Virus record (IMG/VR): IMGVR_UViG_3300044839_000032
Coordinates: 1-52,138 of that record
Strand: one strand, 5' to 3'
Source of the DNA: a virus
Lineage: Duplodnaviria; Caudoviricetes
Length of the DNA: 52,138 nucleotides
Program-made: the position numbers and the translations under genes
Part shown: in pieces, positions 121-47,371 of the stretch
How the letters are laid out: every line of letters starts with the position of its first letter
Numbering within the stretch: position 1 is the first letter of the stretch
The notes under the pieces: model-generated
Databases searched by the model: none
What the model was told of the DNA's origin: nothing
The model's input: only the letters and a program-made list of their open reading frames with translations

Positions 121-1449
121 CTACCTCCGGCTGCGGAGCGGTTTGCGCCGCTTGCGCACGACCGGCACACCTTCGCTGCGGGCAGCACTGGTCGGGGTTC
201 TGACGGCACCTTCCTGTAAGCGTGGCTCGCGCACTGCCGCGATTGAGCTGTCGATCGTGATCGTCGCGTGCGGCAGAGCGTTCGCGCGCACCTTGTGATT
301 GCGCCAGTCGAGTTCCCACACGTCCGCAAGAACTGGCGGATCACTCCACGATTCCTGCGGACGCGCGACTGTGTAGTACTTCCCCTGCACGCTGTCAGCA
401 GTCACTTCGATGCGCAAAAAACCATGACGCGAATCGACGTACGATTCGAGCGTAGGCGCGCCGGTCATTCCTCCAAGTTGAACCGGCGGAACGATCTTCT
501 GACCGTTCACCTTCACCACGTGATGGAGGTTGTGATAGCCGCCCGCGCCGGCGACGATGTACGGCACGTCTCGACCATCCTGCACGCGCGTGAAGCGCTG
601 ATAGTTGTGCACGTGGCCGGCGAAGATGATGTCGGGAATCCTTCCGGATTGGTTCTCCGCCGCCGCCAGAGCATCCTCCATCGCCTTGCTGCTCGCATGA
701 TGATCGTCGCCCGAAAGAATCGGGTGGTGCATCGTGACAAATACAGGCTTGTTCTGGTCCGCTGCCTCGAGCTCGCCGACCAGCCAGTTCAACTGGTCCG
801 GATGCACAGCACCGCCCTCCGGCACGTTCGTATACAAGCCGATGATGGTGGCCAATGGCGTCAGTAGCGTCCAAAATACGTTTGGCTGCGTCATGGCGGT
901 ACGCGTACTCTCACCCGCATCTGGAGTAACGACTCCCGGCTCCTTCTGACAGAAATTTCGCACGAACGCCTGGAGTGATGATTCGGGCGCCACTGCGTCA
1001 CCGTCGTGGTTTCCCGGTACAGCAAAAATCGGCGCGAGATAATGCTCGTAGGGCTGATAGAACTGGCCGAAATACTCAGATGCCTGACCGTTGAAGTAAA
1101 CGCAGTCGCCGAGCAGATAGAAGAATGCCGGATCTGCCTCCGGATGGGCTGGGTCGCTTCGAAAATCGCGCTCCATTCCGTTCGCAACAAGCTGCTGCGG
1201 AACGGGGTCCTTGATGCCGCCGATGTCGCCGTCGATGTGAAAGACCAGCGTCTTCGCCTGTTCGATGGCGGAGATTTGATCCGCAGGCAGGATCTCGGCG
1301 AGATCTAGTCGATATGGTTTCTTACCCGTTGGCCTCGGCAGAGGTTGGAACCTGCGCGAAGAGAAACTGCTGTTATTCACCGCGACCGAGAGCGCTTCCG
1401 CTGACAGACGGCGGCGACCGAATTGGTGGCGTCCATTGGTTTCCGGCAT
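121..1449 (-). CDS. Calcineurin-like metallophosphoesterase (purple acid phosphatase-like), host flank
   Basis: Motifs GDIG, LGDCVY, VPGNHD, HHP and GHVH. Start moved to ATG 1449 (SD GGGAGG upstream) because the longer ORF runs across the att repeat. Confidence 0.85.
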   Translation of the reverse strand: MPETNGRHQFGRRRLSAEALSVAVNNSSFSSRRFQPLPRPTGKKPYRLDLAEILPADQISAIEQAKTLVFHIDGDIGGIKDPVPQQLVANGMERDFRSDPAHPEADPAFFYLLGDCVYFNGQASEYFGQFYQPYEHYLAPIFAVPGNHDGDAVAPESSLQAFVRNFCQKEPGVVTPDAGESTRTAMTQPNVFWTLLTPLATIIGLYTNVPEGGAVHPDQLNWLVGELEAADQNKPVFVTMHHPILSGDDHHASSKAMEDALAAAENQSGRIPDIIFAGHVHNYQRFTRVQDGRDVPYIVAGAGGYHNLHHVVKVNGQKIVPPVQLGGMTGAPTLESYVDSRHGFLRIEVTADSVQGKYYTVARPQESWSDPPVLADVWELDWRNHKVRANALPHATITIDSSIAAVREPRLQEGAVRTPTSAARSEGVPVVRKRRKPLRSRR

Positions 1450-1513
1450 GTTTGCCTCCCTTTTCAGGAAGACGGACACTCTCTTGGATTCCCGCAGAAT
1501 GTTCGAAGTTTCC

Positions 1514-1537
1514 AAGTGGTGCCCAGGGACGGAATTG
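1514..1537. repeat. att site (left): duplicated 3' end of tRNA-Phe
   Basis: AAGTGGTGCCCAGGGACGGAATTG, identical to 47293-47316. Confidence 0.95.
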
Positions 1538-1622
1538 GATTCAGACGCGGTTCGCAGTTTGTGTAAGTTACTGAAAACACAATACCGCAGAAGCTCTCGA
1601 AACGGCAAAAAAGCCGATCGGA

Positions 1623-1642
1623 CACCCAAATCTCACCCAAAT
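1623..1642 (+). repeat. Putative integrase arm-type binding sites (left end)
   Basis: CACCCAAAT-CT-CACCCAAAT; a related pair with the same 11-bp period lies at 47231-47250. Confidence 0.5.
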
Positions 1643-1743
1643 TCAGCCCGACAGCGTACCATCTCCGGTGCCGGAAGATGCTCCGGCTAGGCCAGGATTC
1701 AGGGAGATACGGCGACGCGATCTCTCCCCAAAAGGGAGAGAAA

Positions 1744-1971
1744 ATGGAAGATGTAACCCTGAACCCCGAGTACTGTTACAGCACGAAGGAGCTAGCTTTC
1801 CGTTGGAACCTCAGTTCAGAAACCCTGCGGCGGATCTTCCTGAAGGAGCCGGGCGTCATGATCTTCCGAGAGCAGCAAGCAGGGAAACGGGTCTACCGTA
1901 CGATGAGGATTCCAGGTGCTGTCGCGATCCGGGTTAAGAACCGGATGACGGTAATCGACAAGTCCCGGTAG
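1744..1971 (+). CDS. Excisionase-like winged-helix/MerR-type HTH protein
   Basis: 75 aa with YSTKELAFRWNLSSETLRRIF HTH signature; first gene inside the att repeat; SD GGGAGA before ATG 1744. Confidence 0.7.
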   Translation: MEDVTLNPEYCYSTKELAFRWNLSSETLRRIFLKEPGVMIFREQQAGKRVYRTMRIPGAVAIRVKNRMTVIDKSR

Positions 1972-2036
1972 CAACACCCGCCCGTGGCCGGTTATCTCGG
2001 CGCGGGCAACTCCAAAGAGAGAGGGAGCCCCCCGAC

Positions 2037-2942
2037 ATGCAGGACTGTCCCAAGTGCGGATTCACCGGCGTCATGCACGACGTGAACACGGGCTGCTGGC
2101 AATGCGGCTGGAGACCCGAGCTCGGAGCTGAACTTCCCGAGACCGTCGAAGACGTCGACCGCAAGGTTCAGTTCCTACGTTCGTTCTTCGCGAACGAGGG
2201 CCGCCTTCTTCTCTTTGGGTTTGTCCTTCTAGTCCTTCTCTTCTACAGCACGGTCAAATCGATGAAAGACTTCTTGCTGCTCACCGGCCTCTTTGTCGCC
2301 GCCGCTCTCGCGATCCTCCTCATGGTTCGTTCGGTCCGAGCCAAGGCGATGCGTGTGAAGGCCGTCCCACCGGACCGCTTTTACCTTCGGAACACAGGCT
2401 CCAGTTACACCTTGCTACCGCCGGGACATCCCCGCCTTCCGCAAGCATCTGACGTTGAAGTTTCGATCCGGCCGGACCGTCAGCTTTTCCAGACCCCTGC
2501 CGGACCTCGAATGCTTCGATGGCAACCGGACCCAGAGAACTTAGAAGCGTACGTGGAGTTCTACCGCCCCCTGCGTGGGGCTGAAGCGAAGACCGAGTTC
2601 ATTCAAGGCGTCGAAGAGTTCTTCACCTTGAACCACAACCCGACCATTGGCTTTCTGCAGAACCGCTATGCCGATCACTTGGGCGTGCAAATCCTCACGC
2701 TCGACCTTCCCCCGGAACCGGCGAAGGAAAAGCCGCAACCTATCGACCGTCGTTCGAAGGCCGAGAAAGAGATCGACCGGATGTTCGCGGGCGTGAAGAC
2801 GGCCGCTGAAGCCAGGCGACGCTGGCATGCATTGAAGCAGGACCCCGACCTATCGGCCGCCCTTCAGGACCCGGAGGTTGGACCCAAGTTGAACGGCAAG
2901 TACGAGGAGCTGATCACGAGGATCGCCGAGGGCGACATCTAA
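2037..2942 (+). CDS. Hypothetical membrane protein with N-terminal Zn ribbon
   Basis: CPKC...CWQC, then two hydrophobic helices; SD present; lies just upstream of a coupling-protein gene. Confidence 0.65.
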   Translation: MQDCPKCGFTGVMHDVNTGCWQCGWRPELGAELPETVEDVDRKVQFLRSFFANEGRLLLFGFVLLVLLFYSTVKSMKDFLLLTGLFVAAALAILLMVRSVRAKAMRVKAVPPDRFYLRNTGSSYTLLPPGHPRLPQASDVEVSIRPDRQLFQTPAGPRMLRWQPDPENLEAYVEFYRPLRGAEAKTEFIQGVEEFFTLNHNPTIGFLQNRYADHLGVQILTLDLPPEPAKEKPQPIDRRSKAEKEIDRMFAGVKTAAEARRRWHALKQDPDLSAALQDPEVGPKLNGKYEELITRIAEGDI

Positions 2943-2977
2943 GGTCCATGCCCTGCCCTGTCTCTCGAAGGCACGAA

Positions 2978-2998
2978 TCGCGAAAAAATTTTTCGCGA
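2978..2998. repeat. Perfect inverted repeat TCGCGAAAAA-A-TTTTTCGCGA (candidate origin/binding element)
   Basis: 10-bp arms, 1-nt spacer, intergenic. Confidence 0.7.
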
Positions 2999-3027
2999 CC
3001 AAAGGCGTCCGAGTGGCCGCGAACATT

Positions 3028-3179
3028 AGCCGTATCCGGCTTTCACCTTTCGCCGACCGTGCCGCTCCTATCGTCGGGAGAGTCCCACTAATTTCTATCG
3101 AAATGACCCTATCGGGCTTCGCATCCGCTCGGTGTGCCTCTCCCGACGCTCCGCGCCCCTATCGGGGGTTCGCTATCGC
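3028..3179. other. Cluster of hairpins sharing a TATC tetraloop (candidate oriT or single-strand origin)
   Basis: AGCCG-TATC-CGGCT (3028), ATTTC-TATC-GAAAT (3091), CCC-TATC-GGG (3107), CCCC-TATC-GGGG (3156), GC-TATC-GC (3172). Confidence 0.55.
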
Positions 3180-3216
3180 TCCGCACGGTCGGCGATACCA
3201 AGGTTAGGAGGACCAA

Positions 3217-4893
3217 GTGACTAGAAAAGTCTCCGTTGAGGACATCCTTGAGTCACTGAAACAGACGCACATGCACGTGATCGGCAGTTCCGGTTACGGC
3301 AAGTCTAAGTTCCTCGAATGGCTCATGCGCCATTTGACCAAGTCCACGGACGCAGGCTTCTGCTTGTTCGACTGGCACGGGACGCTCTACCGAGACGTTC
3401 TCAGATACCTTGCCGGCACGGCCTTCAAACTCCGCCCGGTTTACATCCTTGATCCTTCGGACGGCCGTTTCGTGACCGGCTTCAACCCCTTCTCGACTAC
3501 CGACGAGGACATGAGTGCCCAGGTCTCTCGAAGGATCGATGCGACCGTCAAGCCGTGGGGAGCAACCTCGACCGACGAGACCCCCCAGCTCTCCCGCGTG
3601 CTTCGGATGCTCTACTCCTTCGCGGCCGAGGCTCACGCGACCTTGCCGAATGCCCACCTCATGCTCTATGCGGCAAACCAGAACCTTAGGACCTATGCCG
3701 CATCACTTGTGAAAGACGACTACATCCGGCAACAGCTCCGAGACTTTGCCGAGTTCTCCGATTCCTACTTGCGGCAATACGTCTCATCGACGATGAACCG
3801 ACTGGACCGGTTTCTCGCTCCTACCGCTGTGAGGAGAATGCTCGGCAGGGAATCCGGCAACATCTCTATCCGGCAGATACTCGACGAGAACGGCATCTTG
3901 CTTGTGAACCTCTCGGCATCAGGCAACCTCACCAGCGAATCCGGCAAGCTGATTGCCGCACTCCTCATGAACGAGTTTCGAGAAGCGGCACTTGCGAGAG
4001 CAGGGACGAAGAAGCGGTTCGTCCTCTTCCTCGATGAGTTCCAAGAGTACGTCACCCACGACATCGCGCAGATGTTGGACCAGGTCCGAAAAGGCGGGTT
4101 GAACCTCGTGCTATCGCACCAGCACCTGGCGCAGCTCGGCGACGATGAATCGCTCCAGTCCTCGATCGCGACGAATGCCCGGATCAAGGCTGTCTTTGGC
4201 GGGCTGGATTACGAGACTGCCGCGATGGTCGCAAACGAGATCCGCTTGAAGTCGATCAATCGCAGGCAGGTTGAACGGCAAATCTACGGCCACACGGTCC
4301 TCGGCCACTACGTCGAGACTTTCATCAACAAGAGCACGGGCTATGCATCAACCGAAAGCACCAGCGTGAACGCCAACGCGGGGCAAAGCGGCGGGTACGT
4401 GGACGACGAGCCGGAGGTTACGGGTTGGAGCGAGGCCGGCGGAACGACCACGACCTCGACCGACACGAACTCCAGCAGCGAAACCGAATCCCGGCTCCTG
4501 ATGCCGATCGACGGCAAGGAGCTGAAGTCCGAGCAGGCCGTCTCCCAGGCCGAGAAGATCGCGCACGAAGCCTTCAACATCATGACCATGAAACCCCGAG
4601 AGTTGTACCTAAAGCTCCCGGCCATGCCCCAGGCGGTTTGGCAGAGGGTTCCTGAGATCAAGAGCCGCGGCGTCTTTGCAGAGACCTTGAAAGCCTACGA
4701 AGAGAAGGCGTACGAACGTTCGCACGCCCTCCCGCCCGAAGAGGTCGATAAGGCGATGGTCCAATCCCGCGATGACTTCTTTCAAAAGGCTCTGAATTAC
4801 GGTGCGACCTTGAAGCCGAAGAAAGAAGACGGGACCGACGAGGCACCGAAAGAAGGTCGCACCAAAAAACCTCCGCGTCCGCGTTCCAATTAA
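3217..4893 (+). CDS. VirD4/TraD-like type IV coupling protein ATPase (copy 1)
   Basis: Walker A GSSGYGKS, Walker B FLDEFQ, RKGG..LSHQHLAQL motif; SD AGGAGG before GTG. Confidence 0.85.
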   Translation: MTRKVSVEDILESLKQTHMHVIGSSGYGKSKFLEWLMRHLTKSTDAGFCLFDWHGTLYRDVLRYLAGTAFKLRPVYILDPSDGRFVTGFNPFSTTDEDMSAQVSRRIDATVKPWGATSTDETPQLSRVLRMLYSFAAEAHATLPNAHLMLYAANQNLRTYAASLVKDDYIRQQLRDFAEFSDSYLRQYVSSTMNRLDRFLAPTAVRRMLGRESGNISIRQILDENGILLVNLSASGNLTSESGKLIAALLMNEFREAALARAGTKKRFVLFLDEFQEYVTHDIAQMLDQVRKGGLNLVLSHQHLAQLGDDESLQSSIATNARIKAVFGGLDYETAAMVANEIRLKSINRRQVERQIYGHTVLGHYVETFINKSTGYASTESTSVNANAGQSGGYVDDEPEVTGWSEAGGTTTTSTDTNSSSETESRLLMPIDGKELKSEQAVSQAEKIAHEAFNIMTMKPRELYLKLPAMPQAVWQRVPEIKSRGVFAETLKAYEEKAYERSHALPPEEVDKAMVQSRDDFFQKALNYGATLKPKKEDGTDEAPKEGRTKKPPRPRSN

Positions 4894-4899
4894 AGCTCC

Positions 4900-4944
4900 C
4901 AATCCACAGACCCACCTTGTCAAATTCCGCAGGGCTTGTACCGT
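4900..4944 (+). promoter_or_regulatory. Putative promoter (TTGTCA-16-TACCGT) preceded by a DnaA-box-like site; likely leaderless mRNA
   Basis: CAATCCACAG at 4900; the ATG lies 6 nt after the -10 hexamer. Confidence 0.5.
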
Positions 4945-4950
4945 TAGGGC

Positions 4951-5775
4951 ATGCCCAAGACGGACGTTATTCTTTCCAAATGCCGCGCGGAGATTCTTCG
5001 GCTTTTTGCAAGCTATGTGAATCTGACAGGGTCGCATATTCAGCACCTGACCGGCCGCCCCGCCAAGACAATTGAGCGTGACCTTCGTTGGCTTCGCGAA
5101 AACGGCTATCTCGTTTGTAAAGATCATCCGCTCGAGAAGTTCGGTCCGCTCGTTTGGCGTCTCGCGCAACAGGGCTGGGATTGGTGTTTAGACGAGAAGC
5201 TCTTCGACAAGCGGGTCAATGCTACGGATGATAAAGGCGACGGCAACCTCCCGCACGATCTTGTGCTGACCGACCTGCATATCAAGTTCCACGACCTTTA
5301 CGGCGACGACCTCTATTGGACCCAGCTTTACCAGCACTGCTACCGTCGTTTTGACTCAGGCGTGAATGATCGCGTGAACATGGACGCGTTCACGTCGTTT
5401 CCAGTCGGCAATGAACACGTGGTGTTCTGCGTGGAGGCCGAGAAGAGCCGCGACTCGAAGAAGTTCGGTAAGTCTGCGCGCGGTTCAAAGGCCGAAGCCT
5501 ACGACAACTACGCGAAGGGCCACTTCCAGAAAGAGTACGGACCGGGCAGTGATTTCCGCGTTCTCTGGACCTTTAGCACCGCTGTTAAAGCGGCGAACTT
5601 CGCTGGCAAACTGCACGACGAAGGCGGCTCAAGACGGCATTGGATTCTCGATGAGAACCTTATCTCGACGCTCACCAGAGATAGTCAAGCCTTCCTTACG
5701 CCGAAGGATGTTGAGTACCAGCAAGCGCGTCATCGCTGGAACGCACAGCGTCTCTATTCGCTAGATGAGGCGTAG
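4951..5775 (+). CDS. Replication-relaxation (Replic_Relax-like) protein, putative relaxase
   Basis: N-terminal wHTH, LPHDLVLTD, then a PD-(D/E)XK-like MDAF...VEAEKS; sits between two coupling ATPases. Confidence 0.75.
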   Translation: MPKTDVILSKCRAEILRLFASYVNLTGSHIQHLTGRPAKTIERDLRWLRENGYLVCKDHPLEKFGPLVWRLAQQGWDWCLDEKLFDKRVNATDDKGDGNLPHDLVLTDLHIKFHDLYGDDLYWTQLYQHCYRRFDSGVNDRVNMDAFTSFPVGNEHVVFCVEAEKSRDSKKFGKSARGSKAEAYDNYAKGHFQKEYGPGSDFRVLWTFSTAVKAANFAGKLHDEGGSRRHWILDENLISTLTRDSQAFLTPKDVEYQQARHRWNAQRLYSLDEA

Positions 5776-5956
5776 TTGTTATGATGAAATTCGCACGTCT
5801 TACTGCTAGGAGTCAAAGCTTCCTGGCACACCCTTCACACCCGTCCCCCCGGGCGTTCCCCGCTCTGCCGGAGCTACTGAGGAATGCGTCCGGCGGCTGG
5901 CTGATTCCTCAGACTTCTTGCTGGTGCAGGTGGGGACGGGGCTGACGGATTTTTCT

Positions 5957-7321
5957 ATGCTTACTACCGTTGGACTTAATCGCACGAGCTTTGAACGCTG
6001 GAACCAGCCGGTTGAAGTCGATACCGCAAAACACACGGCGGTCATTGGCACCACAGGAGCGGGTAAGACAACCGTCCTCAAGGCCATGATCCTTGCGGAG
6101 ATCGAAGCCGGCCACGGCGTAACCGTGATGGAGCCGCACGGCTCTTTGATCGATGACCTGTTAGATGCGATTCCGCCTCATCGTCGGAATGACGTGATCC
6201 TCTACGACCCCGGCGACCCCTTGAACTCGATCGGGATGAATCCGCTCGAAGGCGAGGACAAGCCGAAGCTTCTTGCGGAGGCAGAGAAGATCGTATCGAG
6301 CGTTTGGAAAGATGCGTGGGGACCGCAGACCTCTTTCCTCTTTCGGAACTTCGGAGAAGCAATTCTCGAAGTGGAATCCGAACCTACATTTCTGCACATC
6401 TACAAGGCGTTCATGGTGAAGGAGTACCGCGACCATCTCGCCGCGAGAGTAACGAGCCCTACCCTCAAGCTCTTCTTCGACAAGTACGACGACTGGGACA
6501 AGCGGCAACAGGAACAGGCCGCGGCTCCCGGCACAAACAAGCTCGACACCTTCATGCAGGTGCCTTTGAGGTACGCAGTTACCCAACGTCACGGCCTCGA
6601 TTTTTCGAAGGTGATGGACGGCTCGCAGATACTTCTTTGCCGCTTTGCGAAGGGCCGGATCGGACCGACTGCAGGAGCCTTTCTCGGTTCGGTTGTGATC
6701 GCAAAGATTCTCTACGCCGCGCTCGCGAGAGAGAAGACGAGCCACCGGCCGCCGCATCGCGTCTTCATCGACGAAGCCGGGAACTTCATGTGCGGATCAG
6801 CGCACGAACAACTTCTCACCGAGGCTAGGAAATACAACGTCTCTCTAACCATGGGCTTTCAGACCAGGAGCCAGCTCACGCCCGAAACCCTGTCTGCTGT
6901 CTTCGGCAACATCGCGTCGCTCTTAATCGCGCGGGTTGGAGCAAAAGACGCGGAGGAGCTCGGGCTTGAGATCGGCGTGCCGGCCGAGACTCTCCAGAAC
7001 TTGCGGAACTTCTGGTGGTACGCCCGGACGGTAAAGGACGGCTTACGAATCGAACCTATCCAGATGGAAGGTTTGAGGTTGAAAGAGATCCCGAAGAACG
7101 AGGAGGTGACACGGAAGATCATCGAACGAAGCAACACGAGATACGCCACTCCCATCTCTGTCATCGAGAAGAACATCAGGACATTCCTTGAAGGAGGAAA
7201 GCGTGAAACTTCAGTCAGTGGACAAAGCCAACGACCTCAGAAAGCAGTTCGACACGGCCAGGGAGGGGGCGGTCAAAGACCTCCTCGCCCAGCGCGCCGA
7301 GATCGACGCGCAGTTGCATGA
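5957..7321 (+). CDS. VirD4/TraD-like type IV coupling protein ATPase (copy 2)
   Basis: Walker A GTTGAGKT, EPHGSL, Walker B FIDEAG, EARKY..MGFQTRSQL. Start ATG 5957 chosen (ORF open from 5918); no clear SD. Confidence 0.85.
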   Translation: MLTTVGLNRTSFERWNQPVEVDTAKHTAVIGTTGAGKTTVLKAMILAEIEAGHGVTVMEPHGSLIDDLLDAIPPHRRNDVILYDPGDPLNSIGMNPLEGEDKPKLLAEAEKIVSSVWKDAWGPQTSFLFRNFGEAILEVESEPTFLHIYKAFMVKEYRDHLAARVTSPTLKLFFDKYDDWDKRQQEQAAAPGTNKLDTFMQVPLRYAVTQRHGLDFSKVMDGSQILLCRFAKGRIGPTAGAFLGSVVIAKILYAALAREKTSHRPPHRVFIDEAGNFMCGSAHEQLLTEARKYNVSLTMGFQTRSQLTPETLSAVFGNIASLLIARVGAKDAEELGLEIGVPAETLQNLRNFWWYARTVKDGLRIEPIQMEGLRLKEIPKNEEVTRKIIERSNTRYATPISVIEKNIRTFLEGGKRETSVSGQSQRPQKAVRHGQGGGGQRPPRPARRDRRAVA

Positions 7322-7379
7322 GTTCGGACACGAGGTAGCTGCGAAGCGCGGCAGGAAACCGAGAGCGCAGCAGCAGTGA
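7203..7379 (+). CDS. Small coiled-coil protein with AT-hook-like KRGRKPR motif
   Basis: Strong SD AAGGAGG before GTG 7203; followed by a terminator. Confidence 0.6.
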   Translation: MKLQSVDKANDLRKQFDTAREGAVKDLLAQRAEIDAQLHEFGHEVAAKRGRKPRAQQQ

Positions 7380-7390
7380 AGTGGAAATGA

Positions 7391-7425
7391 AAAAGCCCCG
7401 GATTGGCCCCGGGGCTTTGTTTTTT
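7391..7425. terminator. Bidirectional rho-independent terminator
   Basis: AAAGCCCCGG/CCGGGGCTTT stem with flanking A and T tracts, between convergent genes. Confidence 0.8.
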
Positions 7426-7442
7426 ACTGCGATGAATCGAGG

Positions 7443-8474
7443 CTATGAAACGGATGCGGCTTCTTCGTCGGCCGGTTCCCAAACCGCCATCTCGCCTTCC
7501 GGTTCCGGCGCAATTCCGAGCATCTCGCGGAGATCAGTCGTCTCGTCGGGTTGCTTGCCTTCCGGGGGAATGCGTACATCAACGTGCAGGGCTCCAGCGT
7601 TCAGAAGCCTGACCGCCAAGTCCTTCGCGCCGTCGATCCCGGCCTCGTCGCCGTCGAGCAGAAGCGTGATGTGATTGAAGCGGGTAAGCGCGATCACTTG
7701 AGCGTCCGTTGCGCGGTTGCCCATGAGAGCTACCGCGTTCATCACACCCTCTCTGACGCACGCCATAACACCCCAAAAACTTTCGCACACGATCACTGAA
7801 TCTCCCTCGACCCGGTGCAGGTTGTAGAGCACCTGGCCGCGATGAAATCCCTTCGGAAACCGCCACCGTTCCGCATGGGGAATGTCAGGATCGATGGACC
7901 GCCCGGCGTACCCGATCAACTGCCCTTCGGGGTTGTGAATGGGGAAGACAACCCGCCCGGCCATCGACCCCTTTCCTGGGAAGAATCCGACACCGAGGTA
8001 TTCGCATTCTTCCTCGTCGAAGTTGCGCCCCGTCAAGTATTCGTGCTTGTGATCGATGTCCTTCAGCTCAAACTTCAACGGCTCGTTCGTTTCGTCGGTA
8101 GGCGTTTCGGCCACTTCGACCTGAGCCACTGCCGCCGGCGAAGTGCTAGCCACTCCAAACCATTCGACCAGGCGTTCAGCCGCTTCGTACTGCGGAACGG
8201 ATTCCATGACCGAAGTGAAGTAGACAATGTCCCCGCCCTTCCTGCCCTTCCGAGCAGAGCAACAGCTTGTGGAGTTGCACTTGAAGTAGTTCTCCCTCAC
8301 GTTCACGGTGAAGTCGTCGTTCGGCTTGTCCTCATGCGTGGGGAGCGGACACTTGCCGCGCCGCCATGTGGACCCCGCCTTCAGCGCGACCCCGTACCTT
8401 CCGAGAACACTCTCGAACGTGATCCGTTGCTTGAGCCGGTCAAAATCGATGGGCTTCCTTCTCGTCTCTGGCAT
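7443..8474 (-). CDS. DNA primase (Zn-binding domain + TOPRIM), phage/plasmid type
   Basis: CPLPTH..FKC...C Zn finger, GRVVFPI..GYAGR, VCESFWG, LLLDGDEAG, QPD; SD AGGAGG before ATG 8474. Confidence 0.85.
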   Translation of the reverse strand: MPETRRKPIDFDRLKQRITFESVLGRYGVALKAGSTWRRGKCPLPTHEDKPNDDFTVNVRENYFKCNSTSCCSARKGRKGGDIVYFTSVMESVPQYEAAERLVEWFGVASTSPAAVAQVEVAETPTDETNEPLKFELKDIDHKHEYLTGRNFDEEECEYLGVGFFPGKGSMAGRVVFPIHNPEGQLIGYAGRSIDPDIPHAERWRFPKGFHRGQVLYNLHRVEGDSVIVCESFWGVMACVREGVMNAVALMGNRATDAQVIALTRFNHITLLLDGDEAGIDGAKDLAVRLLNAGALHVDVRIPPEGKQPDETTDLREMLGIAPEPEGEMAVWEPADEEAASVS

Positions 8475-8968
8475 AGCCAGCCTCCTTGTCAAACGCCAGC
8501 ACAGGCATTGTGCAGGTCTGCTTTGACAATAGGCTTCTTATAGGATTTGAGAAGGCCCGCTAATCCACAAGAAGCGCTAGAACCACAATCACGCTGGAAT
8601 CACCGTCATGCCTTCGAAGGCACCACCTGATCGCACCTAACTCTTATGTCGCGTGACAGTTAGAAAATCAGCCAAGCGTCGGGTTATCTCGCTTTTAGCG
8701 AGAGTACGTGCTTCTTCTATCGCACGTTCAGTCTGGCGTCCCAGCCAGTCCAGTCAAGGGGATCGTTCCGCGCCCAGGAGAGGTCGCGGTCATAGGTAAC
8801 CGGCAGGTCGATGCTTCGCTGATTATATCGACCCGCCACCTAAGACACGCTCCTACCTCTGCGCTCCACGACCCCTGTGACAGTCCTGGCTTGCGGGCCG
8901 CACATCCCGAACGTGCGATAGAAAAACTGTCGCCCGTGTGCTAGTCCCGCGCGGAACACACAAACGAC

Positions 8969-9169
8969 ATGAACAAGTTTATTGTCATTCTGTCGGAGCC
9001 TGCCTACTACGGTTATACCGTCGAAGCAGAGGACGCACGAGCCGCGGGAGAGGAAGCCTTGCGGTTGTTCTATTCCGGGGTCAATATCAACCCATACGAC
9101 TACGGCCAATTGACCGTATCGACGGTCGAACCCGTCGAGTATTCATCCCTTCCGGCGCCTAAGCCTTGA
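8969..9169 (+). CDS. Hypothetical protein
   Basis: 66-aa ORF at the start of the plus-strand phage block. Confidence 0.55.
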   Translation: MNKFIVILSEPAYYGYTVEAEDARAAGEEALRLFYSGVNINPYDYGQLTVSTVEPVEYSSLPAPKP

Positions 9170-9193
9170 CCGTCCCCGCCACTTTGTTACTGT
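9166..9193 (+). promoter_or_regulatory. Sigma70-type promoter TTGACC-16-TACTGT with extended -10 TG
   Basis: Sequence match upstream of the methyltransferase gene. Confidence 0.55.
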
Positions 9194-9235
9194 TGTAATA
9201 ACCCTCATCATCAAACCTAATCACCTCATATTTCC

Positions 9236-9874
9236 ATGCCTCACCCCGTTGGCTCGTACAGCAACGGCTCGAAGACCATTCTCCATCTTTGTGCCGACAC
9301 TGGCTCCGATACCAAACCCTATCAAGACGCCGGTTATAACGTGATCCTCATCGGCAGCAATATCGGCGTCGAAAACTACCATCCGCCTGCCGACGTTTAC
9401 GGCATCATCGCTAATCCCGTCTGCACGGAATTCAGCGTCGCGACTGGCTACCAGCACCAGGGCGACTACGAAAAAGGGCTCCTTCTCGTCCGCGAGTGTC
9501 GCCGTGTGATCGCGGAATGTGACCCGGTGTTCTGGGCTATTGAGAACCCAGCCACAGGACGGCTCAGGCAATTCCTAGGCACGCCCGATATGACGTATGA
9601 GCCTTGGCACTTCGGTTCCCCTTGGACAAAACGGACGGCGCTCTGGGGTAAGTTCAATCGTCCCGCTCCGCTATACCGGAAGTGGGAGGACGTACCGAAG
9701 ATACCAGAACTCTACGTTCGCCCCGGCAGAACGAAACCCTCCCTAGCATTTCTTCATAAGAGCGCCGTCCAGCACATCCCGGAGTTTCAGTGCTTCGCCC
9801 CGGAGAGTGACATGGAGTTCCGATCTCTCTGCTCGCAAAAGTTCGCTCAGGCTTTCTTTGAAGCTAACCGTTGA
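9236..9874 (+). CDS. Phage C5-cytosine DNA methyltransferase-like protein
   Basis: ILHLCADTGS (degenerate motif I), ANPVCTEFS (catalytic Cys), AIENP, KRTALWG. Confidence 0.7.
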   Translation: MPHPVGSYSNGSKTILHLCADTGSDTKPYQDAGYNVILIGSNIGVENYHPPADVYGIIANPVCTEFSVATGYQHQGDYEKGLLLVRECRRVIAECDPVFWAIENPATGRLRQFLGTPDMTYEPWHFGSPWTKRTALWGKFNRPAPLYRKWEDVPKIPELYVRPGRTKPSLAFLHKSAVQHIPEFQCFAPESDMEFRSLCSQKFAQAFFEANR

Positions 9875-44164: not shown

Positions 44165-44175
44165 AATGCCCGGTC

Positions 44176-44349
44176 GTGAACGCCGCCCAGCTCATTCTCG
44201 ACTACGTGGACTTTTGCGACCGGCGCGGCCCGGTTCTCGAACTCTCCGAGTACGTGGTCGTCTGGAGAGTAGCGAACGAGATCGCCGAGGAGACGGCGCC
44301 GGAGGATCGCGAAATGGTCCTCGCCAGCATCCTTCCGAACCGCGAGTAG
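44176..44349 (+). CDS. Hypothetical protein
   Basis: Short acidic ORF after the HTH gene. Confidence 0.4.
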   Translation: MNAAQLILDYVDFCDRRGPVLELSEYVVVWRVANEIAEETAPEDREMVLASILPNRE

Positions 44350-44402
44350 CTCTCCATCCGGTAGAATCGCCCGAACTCCATGTCTTTCGAGGGGGCGGGT
44401 GG

Positions 44403-46028
44403 ATGAAGAATCTCCTCTACTACGGGGACAATCTAGATGTTCTGCGGCGGCACATCGACGACGAAGTCGCCGACCTTGTCTATTTGGACCCGCCCTTCAA
44501 CTCCAGCCAGGACTACAACGTCCTTTTTGCAGAGCATGACGGGACCAAGGCCGCTGCCCAAATCAAAGCTTTCGGTGACACTTGGAAGTGGGACGAGTCA
44601 GCCGCCCGCGCTTACCAAGAGGTAGTCGAGTCGGGCGGTCGGGTGTCCGAGGTTCTGCAGGCCTTTCGCGCATACCTCGACCGTACGGACATGCTTGCGT
44701 ATCTTTCCATGATGGCCCCGCGCCTCATTGAGCTGCGGCGGGTCATGAAGCCAACGGCGTCCATCTACCTTCATTGTGACGCGACCGCTAGCCACTACCT
44801 CAAGGTGGTCATGGATGCGACCTTCGGCCCTGAGAACTTCCGAAACGAGATCATCTGGCAGCGGACCCTCGCGAAAGGACTTCAGACCCGCAAGCTCGCA
44901 CAGAATCACGACGTAATCCTTGTTTACCAGAAGTCCGATCAGGCGTATTTCAATCTCGACTCTACCTTCCAGCCTTACGACGAGGATGACCTATCCGAGA
45001 AGACAGCCGGAAAGTACGCTTCCCGCGATGAAGACGGCCGGCGGTTCCAGCTCACCAGCCTCCTTAATCCGAACACCGACCGGCCGAACCTGAAGTATGA
45101 ATTCCTCGGCGTCACCCGCGTCTGGCGCTGGACGCAGGAGCGCATGCAGGCAGCCTATGAAGCGGGCTTCGTGATCCAGACTCAGCCCGGCACGGTCCCA
45201 CGGTTCAAGCGGTATCTCGACGAACAGCGAGGGATGCCACTCCACGACGTTTGGACCGACATCCCGCCCATCAACGCGCGCGCGAAGGAACGCCTCGGGT
45301 ATCCCACACAGAAGCCTGTCGCTCTTCTTGAGCGCATCGTGAACATTAGTTGTCCTCCGGGCGGCGTCGTGCTCGATCCATTCTGCGGTTGCGGGACGTC
45401 GATCTCCGCAGGCCAACGACTGGACCGTCCATGGATAGGAATCGACATCACTCACCTTGCTATAGGACTGATCCGAAGCCGTCTTCGCGGCGAGTTCGGC
45501 GAAGAGATCGCGAAGACATACCGGGTCATCGGCGAACCGACAACCGTAGAAGATGCGATGGAGCTCGCGCATGAAGACCCGTACCAGTTCCAATGGTGGG
45601 CGCTCGGTTTGGTCGGAGCCCGCCGGGACGAGGAAAAGAAGGGAGCCGACCGAGGTATCGACGGCAAACTCGCCTTTCACGACGAGGGTCTTGCCGGGAA
45701 AACGAAGAACGTCGTCATCTCCGTCAAAGCCGGGAAGCTTCACGCGAACCACGTGCGGGACTTGCGCGGAGTCATCGAAAGAGACCGCGCCGAGATCGGC
45801 GTGCTTATTTCGATGGAAGAACCCACGAAGCCGATGCGGTCGGAAGCAGCGAACGCAGGTTTCTACAAGTCGCCGTATGGCACCGACCACCCCCGGCTCC
45901 AGTTCCTCACTATCCACGATCTTCTCCACGGGAAAGGCATCGACTACCCAGCTCCCAGGCAGACTAACGTCACGACCAAACGCGCACGCCGTCACGTGAA
46001 GGATGACGAAGCCCGCAAGCTTTTTTAA
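44403..46028 (+). CDS. N6-adenine/N4-cytosine DNA methyltransferase (beta class) with C-terminal PD-(D/E)XK restriction-endonuclease-like domain
   Basis: YLDPPF, YPTQKP, LDPFCGCGT; C-terminal ADRGIDG...ISVKAG; start ATG 44403. Confidence 0.88.
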   Translation: MKNLLYYGDNLDVLRRHIDDEVADLVYLDPPFNSSQDYNVLFAEHDGTKAAAQIKAFGDTWKWDESAARAYQEVVESGGRVSEVLQAFRAYLDRTDMLAYLSMMAPRLIELRRVMKPTASIYLHCDATASHYLKVVMDATFGPENFRNEIIWQRTLAKGLQTRKLAQNHDVILVYQKSDQAYFNLDSTFQPYDEDDLSEKTAGKYASRDEDGRRFQLTSLLNPNTDRPNLKYEFLGVTRVWRWTQERMQAAYEAGFVIQTQPGTVPRFKRYLDEQRGMPLHDVWTDIPPINARAKERLGYPTQKPVALLERIVNISCPPGGVVLDPFCGCGTSISAGQRLDRPWIGIDITHLAIGLIRSRLRGEFGEEIAKTYRVIGEPTTVEDAMELAHEDPYQFQWWALGLVGARRDEEKKGADRGIDGKLAFHDEGLAGKTKNVVISVKAGKLHANHVRDLRGVIERDRAEIGVLISMEEPTKPMRSEAANAGFYKSPYGTDHPRLQFLTIHDLLHGKGIDYPAPRQTNVTTKRARRHVKDDEARKLF

Positions 46029-46044: not shown

Positions 46045-47199
46045 TTACGCGCCGCCCTGAATCACTTTGAACTTTTGCTGTTGCTTCGGCCACGTTGCCC
46101 GGACACGTTCCGTGAGCCGCACTTGTCTGGCCTGAACCCACGCTGAGTAGTGCTTCTCGACGATCTTCACCGAGTTGCCGAGGATCGCGGCTACGTCCTC
46201 GATAGGAACGCCGTTCGCCAAAAGGCTGGTTGCGAGGGTGTCCCTGAATCTGTGGGCGACCATCATGTTCGTTCCCTTCGAAACGCGAGCGTCCTTCAGC
46301 ACTCTCCGAAGGGTTCTCTGCCAGCTTGAAACGGCCGACAGGGGCTTGCCGTTGCCCGACCAGAAAAAGTAACGGGAGTTACTGTTCTTCGTCGCTTGGT
46401 ACCTGAGCGCATCAGCCACATCAGGCGGAAGAGGCACGAACACCGCTTGCCCCGTCTTTCCCGTCCGAAGCATCAGGTCATCGCCATGCAACCGCTCAGT
46501 TTCGAGACAGGTTGCGTCCTGAATCCTGAGTCCCGAATACCGAAGCAAGAGGACGAAGCACTTGATCCGGTCCGGCCGGTTGTGGCCGTGGTCCCCGTGA
46601 TGCGAATACTTCTCGCACGCCGTGATGATCCGGCCCATTTCCTGATCTGTGTACGGCAGGGTTGGGGGTTCGTCGATCTCAGGGGTTTTGAACTCAGCCG
46701 CCGTATTTTTCGCGATCCACTCAGCAGCGGTGCAGAAGCCCATGAACTGCTTCAGAAGCTCCAGCCGTTTCGCGGCAGTCGCCGGCATCATCTTCCATGA
46801 CGCCTTGAAGGTCGCCAGCTCCGCAAAGGTCAGCTGCTTCACGTATCTAAAGCCCCTGCCTTCGCACCAGGAGACCACCTGACGGCCGATGAACCTCCGG
46901 TAGAGGCGCATGGAGCTTTCGGCTAGGTTCCGGCTCTCAGCCTCAGCCAGGAACAGTTTCGTGGCTTCCTCGATTGTGACGAGCTTCTGATAGCCCCCGC
47001 CGATCTTGCCGGACTTGATCCACTCTCTAATCTCGTTCTGCGCGGCCTCCCACGAGGTCTGGTCCATGTTCCGGCGAACCGACTCTCCACCGAGGGAGCC
47101 TTCAACGTAGATAGGACAGGCGCAACGCCGGTAGCTTCTGCCTCGTTTCGGATTCTCTTTCTGGCATGCGGTTCCGTGCCGCCGATACAGCGTGAGCAT
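46045..47199 (-). CDS. int: Tyrosine recombinase/integrase
   Basis: SGLRIQD (R), KTG (K), HRFRDT (HxxR), LGN, HY; adjacent to the tRNA att site. Confidence 0.95.
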   Translation of the reverse strand: MLTLYRRHGTACQKENPKRGRSYRRCACPIYVEGSLGGESVRRNMDQTSWEAAQNEIREWIKSGKIGGGYQKLVTIEEATKLFLAEAESRNLAESSMRLYRRFIGRQVVSWCEGRGFRYVKQLTFAELATFKASWKMMPATAAKRLELLKQFMGFCTAAEWIAKNTAAEFKTPEIDEPPTLPYTDQEMGRIITACEKYSHHGDHGHNRPDRIKCFVLLLRYSGLRIQDATCLETERLHGDDLMLRTGKTGQAVFVPLPPDVADALRYQATKNSNSRYFFWSGNGKPLSAVSSWQRTLRRVLKDARVSKGTNMMVAHRFRDTLATSLLANGVPIEDVAAILGNSVKIVEKHYSAWVQARQVRLTERVRATWPKQQQKFKVIQGGA

Positions 47200-47250: not shown

Positions 47251-47295
47251 CCGTTGCTCCAGAAGCTAAACCACTGATTCCTAAGAGGATAAAAG

Positions 47296-47371
<76 letters not shown>

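Follow-up and report, generated by a model that had tools for sequence, protein, structure and literature searches.

What is the function of a 274-nt intergenic gap in which several unrelated stems close the same four-letter loop? The question is raised by IMG/VR virus record IMGVR_UViG_3300044839_000032, analyzed here over its positions 1 to 52,138 (52,138 nt; hereafter, the window), which carries a tailed prophage of an Acidobacteriota-type host. The gap (positions 2943-3216; hereafter, the spacer) separates two plus-strand open reading frames (ORFs), orf301 and a 558-amino-acid (aa) ORF that we call ATPase1. An earlier inspection of the letters (the sequence-only reading) described positions 2978-3179 as an array of hairpins with variable stems and an invariant TATC loop, and proposed that it is recognized by the relaxase or primase of the element. 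We find that ~220 bases of the spacer form a conserved, non-coding arrangement of nested inverted repeats and small TATC-looped hairpins. At about even confidence, we read the spacer as a cis-acting DNA-processing site, either an origin of transfer (oriT)-like site or a nick-type replication origin, for the Replic_Relax/ATPase gene module located downstream. The anatomy of the site, its conservation and covariation, its gene context and its likeness in layout to regions of MOBC-type plasmids are matters of observation and are presented first.

All the elements announced by the sequence-only reading, i.e., five TATC-looped inverted repeats, a preceding 21-bp inverted repeat and a TTATC-looped hairpin further upstream, were recovered at their places (Table 1). 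The sixth TATC was likewise found within CTCC..GGAG; this hairpin is nonetheless overlapped by an arm of the inner long inverted repeat, competes with it, and is displaced by it in every minimum-energy fold. Around the array lies a long, nested inverted repeat that spans positions 3050-3195 (146 bp), with outer arms of 13 nt and inner arms of 17 nt, and the feature thus extends to position 3195 rather than to 3179. Two TATC hairpins are enclosed by the inner repeat and two more sit between the 3′ arms. The TATC copies of the spacer, which mostly lie inside the large repeat, are 36, 27, 14, 50, and 14 nt apart, with pairs at 14-nt spacing occurring twice (3096/3110 and 3160/3174).

Neither the density of the motif nor its association with stems is expected by chance. 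TATC occurs 108 times in the window and six times within 148 nt of the spacer, where 0.31 copies are expected (Poisson probability of 8.9e-7, or ~3e-4 after correction for the number of windows). Six copies per 150 nt is the maximum of the window, the next highest count being three. Dinucleotide-preserving shuffling of the spacer reached six TATC in 1 of 5,000 shuffles and never (0 of 5,000) generated at least four hairpins (stem of ≥3 bp) with one common tetraloop, which bears out the predicted enrichment over shuffled sequence. Perfect stems of 3 to 5 bp close four of the six spacer copies; stems of ≥3 bp are found on only 2 of the 102 copies in the rest of the window (Fisher test, 4e-5) and on 1.6% of all possible tetraloops in the window. 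Apart from TATC, only two tetraloops of the spacer are closed by a stem of this length, both within the A/T palindrome. As a whole, the spacer folds better than 200 of 200 shuffles on either strand, as RNA or as DNA, with z-scores of −4.1, −4.6, −6.1, and −4.9 (plus-strand RNA, −4.1; minus-strand RNA, −4.9; minus-strand DNA, −6.1, the strongest).

Scans based on ATPase1 yielded relatives in 1 genome locus, 41 metagenome loci, and 3 viral loci. The spacer was identified by blastn in three of the relatives (L004, 86.9% identity; L005, 85.6%; L002, 82.0%), which together with the window constitute group A. Core identity in L004 and L005 (88% and 87%) is above that of the flanking genes ATPase1 (81% and 75%), orf274 (64% and 68%), and the end of orf301 (69% and 66%). 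The four group A sequences differ by 1-nt indels, indicating that the region is non-coding. Paired cells amount to 90.8% in the group A structure versus 37 to 46% when the partners are slid. Six pairs are changed on both sides, a number that none of 500 shuffles reached: four are in HP3, where the ATTTC/GAAAT stem is replaced by AAAC-TATC-GTTT at the same place in L005, L005 contributes one more in the outer repeat, where C-G has become T-A, and HP0 holds the last. These changes speak for the selection on pairing postulated in the sequence-only reading, and so do those of the more distant loci described below; with only four related sequences, the covariation within group A is suggestive and falls short of proof. 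No variation is seen in any of the 11 inner pairs of the long repeats or in 10 of the 13 outer pairs, and the 11-bp core of the inner repeat is unvarying in all four sequences. At the 5′ side of the array, the 21-bp palindrome is kept with 1-nt changes, the place of HP0 is occupied by hairpins with another stem and loop in L004 (GCGCCA-AAAA-TGGCGC) and L005 (TTCCGC-TATCA-GCGGAA), and the HP1 stem counts 4 bp in L004 and 5 bp in L005, with a broken closing pair in L002. Four of the five single mismatches, read by eye, are A.C on the plus strand, a weak hint at the minus strand as the one that folds.

Diverged spacers with this layout occupy the corresponding position in five further loci, which we refer to as group B: L038, L040 (which shares a contig with L045), L043, L046 (which shares a contig with L064), and L065. 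Their ATPase1 proteins are 33 to 46% identical to that of the window where measured. Each of the five spacers has two copies of GTATC, 11 nt apart, upstream of the large repeat; the shared layout also comprises a hairpin with an A-rich loop, GCTATCGC, and a nested repeat of 130 to 150 bp. The counterpart of the 21-bp palindrome is here the hairpin CGCCGA-A7-TCGGCG. The inner arms of the long repeat covary (both partners differ in 5 of 28 pairs), and L065 adds the covarying arms TCGGGTACCTG/CAGGTACCCGA. Stems around TATC loops are TGCT/AGCA in L038, L040, and L065, and GTGC/GCAC in L040; at the place of the latter, L065 has GTGC-TAAC-GCAC. Both groups are linked by GCTATCGC and CGCTCCGCC, each present in seven of eight spacers, and the 9-mer CGCTATCGC also occurs, with at most one mismatch, in seven of the eight spacers compared. 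Over eight spacers, stems of ≥3 bp close 14 of the 46 TATC copies; the motif is thus exhibited both in potential loops and unpaired. It has a marked strand bias, with 50 TATC versus 4 GATA in nine spacers. In sum, the site lies directly upstream of ATPase1 in nine loci (the window, L002, L004, L005, L038, L040, L043, L046, and L065). A Replic_Relax gene downstream was confirmed in the five loci that reach that far (the window, L002, L004, L005, and L038), and a second ATPase gene was found in the window, L002, L004, L005, and L040; no match to orf274 was found in L040.

At the DNA level, a spacer search of 401 genomes of the host's class delivered a convincing match in genome G001 only. Three further matches of 32 to 42 nt (E values of 3e-4 to 1e-3) were taken as chance. 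Viral contigs gave no match to the group A DNA pattern and none that was confirmed with alignment A4. Two DNA sequencing runs from another study (X2 and X3) hold a contig ~92% identical to positions 2000-4500, with 208 differences and 2 gaps in 2,497 nt; among the gaps listed there is only one, at position 2029, so that no indel is listed for the spacer of this relative. No RNA run appears among the matches listed for sequencing runs holding the element.

Table 1. Positions of the spacer elements and of the adjoining genes in the window (HP, hairpin; attL, left attachment site of the prophage)
Feature	Position	Strand	Description
orf97	1678..1971	+	First gene inside attL; small conserved protein
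Interrupted hairpin	1980..2007	+	GCCCG-TG-GCCGG-TTATC-TCGGC-G-CGGGC; between orf97 and orf301; closing pair G.T
orf301	2037..2942	+	Cys-rich (zinc-ribbon-like) N terminus and one strongly hydrophobic segment
21-bp palindrome	2978..2998	.	TCGCGAAAAA-A-TTTTTCGCGA; from inverted-repeat search
HP0	3005..3020	.	GCGTCC-GAGT-GGCCGC; one mismatch
HP1	3028..3041	.	AGCCG-TATC-CGGCT
Outer long inverted repeat, left arm	3050..3062	.	TCGCCGACCGTGC; 13 nt, 100% complementary to 3183-3195
Alternative hairpin around sixth TATC	3065..3080	.	CTCC-TATCGTCG-GGAG; overlaps inner repeat arm; TATC is TACC in L002
Inner long inverted repeat, left arm	3072..3088	.	CGTCGGGAGAGTCCCAC; 17 nt, 88% complementary to 3132-3148
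HP3	3091..3104	.	ATTTC-TATC-GAAAT
HP4	3107..3116	.	CCC-TATC-GGG; kept in 3 of 4 group A sequences; closing pair broken in L002
Inner long inverted repeat, right arm	3132..3148	.	
HP5	3156..3167	.	CCCC-TATC-GGGG; stem kept in 4 of 4 sequences; L002 loop TAAC
GC-TATC-GC	3172..3179	.	GCTATCGC; most widely shared motif
Outer long inverted repeat, right arm	3183..3195	.	GCACGGTCGGCGA
ATPase1	3217..4893	+	Soluble TrwB/VirD4-like P-loop ATPase, 558 aa
orf274	4951..5775	+	Probable divergent Replic_Relax (MOBC-type); N-terminal winged helix and PD-(D/E)XK-like domain
ATPase2	5918..7321	+	Second TrwB/HerA-like ATPase

The genes that follow the spacer belong to a mobilization-type set. ATPase1 matches the Pfam families TrwB_AAD_bind (E value, 5.5e-11) and TraG-D_C (2e-6), has its Walker A motif at residues 23-30 and no hydrophobic segment, and yields a structural model that most resembles TrwB (2.8e-10), Cag-beta, and DotL in fold, followed by HerA. 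ATPase2 matches the same families (1.4e-7 and 4.2e-5, respectively), and both ATPases match phrog_5156. Between them, orf274 has homologues (50 to 70% identical) of which seven in nine match PF13814, Replic_Relax, with a best E value of 4.4e-14. Its model (predicted local distance difference test score of 86.7) has fold matches to FokI, AF2093, and the MarR/AspA winged helices, and residues D145, E162, E164, and Y184 are invariant in the alignment. A tblastn search with orf274 gave no match in phage and plasmid collections, and no HUH, Rep, or Rep_trans family was found among the 39 ORFs of the window scanned with Pfam. Published work describes Replic_Relax as a PD-(D/E)XK family usually fused to a helix-turn-helix domain (PMC3424549), PF13814 as the MobC relaxase superfamily that accompanies VirD4-type coupling proteins (PMC5357655), and MOBC relaxases as proteins with a PD-(D/E)XK fold and a DEE metal motif that resemble BamHI (PMC6736028). 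In the circular form of the prophage, the gene order is integrase, attP, orf97, orf301, the site, ATPase1, Replic_Relax, and ATPase2, which resembles the compact backbone that PMC5357655 attributes to integrative mobilizable elements.

Upstream of the spacer, orf97 surpasses the other genes of the module in conservation, with 78 to 82% aa identity in L002, L004, and L005 and 31 to 66% in 10 further loci. The window protein has no Pfam hit, and sub-threshold helix-turn-helix hits appeared in one of eight homologues scanned; orf97 is possibly a helix-turn-helix protein of the Xis or regulator type, as judged mainly by inspection of its sequence. In turn, orf301 is the least conserved gene of the module (47 to 61% aa identity in close relatives; no gene of that size in L059), matches no Pfam or PHROG family, and has its hydrophobic maximum (2.79) at residue 79. 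To cast it as the membrane partner of the anchorless ATPases would be pure speculation.

Two enterococcal plasmids typed as MOBC, pTEF1 (NC_004669.1) and p1_EfsC8_rep9c (NZ_CP124915.1), offer the closest comparison. In pAD1 and pAM373, oriT2 combines a large inverted repeat with adjoining short direct repeats and is located between the coupling-protein and relaxase genes; it was reportedly defined by Francia and Clewell in 2002 and by Francia et al. in 2013. Repeats of this kind sit in both plasmids between a gene annotated as "TraM recognition domain" and a "replication-relaxation family" gene. pTEF1 has five direct repeats at 12-nt spacing and a nested inverted repeat with outer arms of 18 nt and inner arms of 25 nt (span, 142 bp). 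p1_EfsC8_rep9c, whose relaxase is 61% identical to that of pTEF1 and whose Replic_Relax-type gene is annotated as encoding a winged-helix protein, has four direct repeats of different sequence at 11-nt spacing, the same 18-nt outer arms, and inner arms of 36 nt (139 bp). In the plasmids, as probably in the prophage, the site neighbors a Replic_Relax-family gene; in both, it also neighbors a TrwB/VirD4-like gene, the non-coding region (~270 to 700 bp) houses a nested inverted repeat of similar span (139 to 142 bp versus 146 bp), and a short motif is repeated in one orientation, at intervals of 11 to 12 nt in the plasmids and of 11 nt in group B. The motifs of the window lie mostly within the large repeat as hairpin loops, whereas those of the plasmids form a tandem series beside it; moreover, the prophage has two ATPases, neither membrane-anchored, and is an Acidobacteriota-type tailed prophage as opposed to a Gram-positive plasmid. 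The likeness is one of architecture and context and does not imply homology of the sites.

Beyond the existence, conservation, and pairing of the site, we infer how it might operate. A sequence-specific protein, most likely the winged-helix domain of orf274 or alternatively orf97, would bind the repeated TATC-core motifs. On supercoiled or unwound DNA, the ~146-bp nested inverted repeat and its internal hairpins may be extruded, thereby displaying TATC copies in tetraloops. The putative PD-(D/E)XK domain would then nick one strand in or beside the large repeat, and the two soluble TrwB-like ATPases would act on the nicked DNA. HUH origins and nic sites provide a parallel, in that a site-specific nickase is offered a short conserved sequence within or next to the loop of a hairpin or cruciform; the prophage differs in its candidate nuclease, of the PD-(D/E)XK fold, and in having six loop copies instead of one. 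Another parallel is found in the clt loci of Streptomyces plasmids, with 8-bp recognition repeats for TraB, and in the FtsK-orienting polar sequences (KOPS) read by FtsK, neither of which needs inverted repeats. These share with the spacer several short motifs in one orientation adjoining a gene for a hexameric-motor-type ATPase; ATPase1 is nonetheless closest to TrwB and not to FtsK, and no winged-helix recognition domain is evident in its C-terminal part, a low-confidence part of the model.

A number of observations weigh against a processing site of this kind. No mating-pore (type IV secretion) family was detected by Pfam among the scanned ORFs, and both ATPases are devoid of an N-terminal membrane segment. 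The absence of a pore and of ATPase anchors leaves two options, namely mobilization by a helper element or a role in replication. The link to a relaxase made by the sequence-only reading is partly supported by the adjoining Replic_Relax-family gene, the TrwB-like ATPases, and the MOBC-like layout; it is weakened by orf274 itself, which has no Pfam hit at E values up to 5 and whose profile aligns with the Replic_Relax protein of pTEF1 without significance (hhalign, E value of 0.13). The comparison with the plasmids suffers further from the position of the prophage site, upstream of the first ATPase gene and not between coupling-protein and relaxase genes, and from the blastn alignment of the spacer to the two enterococcal regions, which returned 9-nt matches only (E value, 0.76). 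It also takes the enterococcal gap between both genes to be the experimentally defined oriT2, whose nick is reported to lie inside the large repeat. The loop described as invariant is so within the window and not in relatives, given that L002 has TACC, TAAC, and TAAC at three places; moreover, L004 and L002 have lost most of the HP3 stem. Some group B copies of TATC form direct repeats at 11-nt spacing outside any hairpin, and recognition may therefore be of the sequence and not of the loop. Finally, conservation in homologous loci, also anticipated, holds for the same place in eight other phage-like loci and fails at larger distance. An alignment of Replic_Relax matched in 6 of the 401 genomes of the host's class; five of these, additional to the loci above, encode orf97, ATPase1, and Replic_Relax and make up group C. 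All five lack the spacer and have coding sequence at that position. L006 has orf97, ATPase1, orf274, and ATPase2 and no such spacer, and the spacer is also missing from L034 and L035, both with ATPase1 and orf274 and the former also with ATPase2 (orf97 was not seen in the stretch examined of either). The site thus belongs to a subset of the lineages of the module. Candidate long repeats elsewhere in the locus were found in L059, L060, and L061 of group C, with no TATC array and uncertain coding status.

The same structure could act in RNA, as an operon leader upstream of ATPase1 or as a site at which a polycistronic early transcript is processed; mRNA stability, RNase III-type processing, translation, or antitermination would then depend on the hairpins, and an RNA-binding protein would recognize UAUC loops. 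The flanking genes are all on the plus strand, in the window and in L065 ~10 to 20 nt separate the end of the long hairpin from the ribosome-binding site that follows, both RNA strands fold with the significant stability reported above, the stems covary, and a similar TTATC hairpin occurs in the preceding intergenic gap. Multi-hairpin RNAs that repeat one loop motif are known, e.g., the sponges of the CsrB/RsmZ type and the boxB sites of lambda, which resemble the array in carrying the same short loop on different stems. Here, however, the arms of the long repeat are conserved as sequence as well as in pairing (the unvarying inner and outer pairs of group A), and the motif also occurs unpaired, in direct repeats 11 nt apart (group B) that are typical of protein binding to duplex DNA. 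Furthermore, positions 1500-9500 had no match to Rfam 15 at E values up to 1 on either strand, and the three terminator-like sites within 1600-3600 (2021-2033, 2196-2208, and 2731-2748) all fall outside the spacer. We regard a structured RNA as unlikely. Unpaired repeats would instead suit an operator or iteron array on duplex DNA, in which a dimeric or multimeric regulator (orf97 or a repressor encoded elsewhere) binds the TATC-core repeats and controls early transcription or theta-type initiation, with the hairpin potential as a by-product of partly palindromic sites. Such an array would account for the fixed spacing of TATC pairs (14 nt twice in the window; 11 nt in L038, L040, L043, L046, and L065), the conservation of GCTATCGC as sequence, the TATC-bearing repeats in the divergent gap on the primase side (8712-8729/8909-8926), and the rank of orf97 as the best conserved gene of the module. 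It would leave unexplained the 146-bp nested repeat with its covarying arms, and a protein site would not require flanks that vary from copy to copy and are still self-complementary (four of six), nor the joint change of both arms of HP3 and HP0 between relatives. A scan of 1600-3600, which may not fit this host, gave no sigma-70-like promoter. On balance, an operator or iteron array seems quite improbable.

The remaining candidate named by the sequence-only reading, the phage DnaG-like primase (7443-8492, minus strand), would use the spacer as a single-strand initiation site. Primase-dependent single-strand origins are known as hairpin clusters in phage G4 and in the ssi sites of plasmids, the minus-strand DNA of the spacer has the strongest fold z-score, and L004 and L005, the only relatives in which linkage could be checked because the other loci are too short, retain the primase gene at a distance of 4 kb. 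Nothing links primase and site specifically, and the site co-occurs instead with the directly adjoining Replic_Relax/ATPase genes; we regard this alternative as highly improbable. Among other readings, a small ORF within the spacer (3013-3207) was ruled out by the 1-nt indels among relatives, a mobile repeat resembling miniature inverted-repeat transposable elements or repetitive extragenic palindromes by the single-copy status of the region in the window and in G001, and an attachment site by the location of attL and attR elsewhere. A pac or cos site is unlikely, the terminase gene being 14 kb off. The GC skew is uniformly negative over the phage and locates no origin.

Under the favored reading of the spacer as a DNA-processing site, its interest lies in the family of the presumed nuclease. 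MOBC relaxases, which are restriction-endonuclease-like, are the least understood relaxases, and to our knowledge work on their origins has been limited to a few plasmids of Gram-positive bacteria. The prophage site comes from a different phylum, is located inside tailed prophages, can be easily synthesized, and has an internal logic of its own, a large nested repeat combined with a repeated TATC core. It raises the questions of whether a PD-(D/E)XK relaxase recognizes the loop, the duplex repeat, or both; of what soluble coupling-protein-like ATPases do in phages; and of whether some prophages are transferred by conjugation or start replication at a nick that a relaxase relative introduces. 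With 344 proteins at E values of ≤0.001 among 8,000 candidates scored, the ATPase1 family is large, and the module may thus be widespread among soil viruses. A more far-reaching and rather doubtful proposal is that a tailed temperate phage of soil Acidobacteriota carries the complete backbone of a mobilizable element, so that its DNA would leave the cell by conjugation through a helper pore as well as in virions, or that a relaxase/coupling-protein set has been turned into a replication initiator, with the TATC tetraloops as the multivalent code of a PD-(D/E)XK nickase. Within the open literature, as covered by titles and abstract openings, no relaxase-encoding or mobilizable prophage with this module is described, and Replic_Relax in phages receives annotation-level mentions in Bacillus phages only. 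The family is encoded by some Bacillus phages with a putative role (PMC9658697 and PMC7685451), in one case along with FtsK-like proteins (PMC9658697).

The prophage that hosts the site is delimited by a 24-bp exact direct repeat (1514-1537 and 47293-47316), the right copy of which reaches into a tRNA-Phe gene (47296-47371, minus strand) at its 3′ end. This repeat and the rise in G+C content from ~57% to 64% beyond 47 kb indicate a prophage of ~45.8 kb integrated in tRNA-Phe, with the repeats as attL and attR and the spacer 1.4 kb inside attL. The integrase gene (46045-47199) is at the right end, and terminase, capsid, ERF, YqaJ, and DnaG-like primase genes are present as well. A 620-aa ORF with N6/N4 DNA methylase and Mrr-like restriction-endonuclease domains (44166-46028) adjoins the integrase gene, and a small methyltransferase-like ORF lies at 9236-9874. 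At the opposite end, a 502-aa "Metallophos" ORF (121-1629, minus strand) crosses attL, with its first ~40 codons (~1504-1623) on the phage side; these codons are the part that matches L002, L004, and L062. An ORF that crosses attL and whose relatives match the phage side only is probably chimeric, part host gene and part phage DNA.

Several minor observations concern similar structures and genes outside the spacer. The interrupted hairpin that follows orf97 is kept in the four group A sequences, with the loop TTACC in L002, and hairpins also follow orf97 in the distant L059 (4267-4288) and L061 (3619-3640), with loops GCCACT and GCCGCT, respectively. Within the ATPase1 coding sequence, GTGC-TATC-GCAC (4108-4119) repeats letter for letter the hairpin of the L040 spacer. 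In L002, a locus in a Thermoanaerobaculia genome, the ATPase1 homologue (3989-5652) is split into two overlapping frames of 196 and 381 aa, the cause being a frameshift or else an error of assembly. An 18-nt inverted repeat (8712-8729/8909-8926; 94% complementary, 179 nt between the arms) that carries CTATCGCAC lies in the 740-nt gap that separates the primase gene from the divergently oriented plus-strand genes next to it, and a protein that binds the spacer could have a second site here. Near this repeat are a GGTTATC beside a 6-bp hairpin (~8680-8708) and the hairpin GACCG-TATCGA-CGGTC (~9110-9125).

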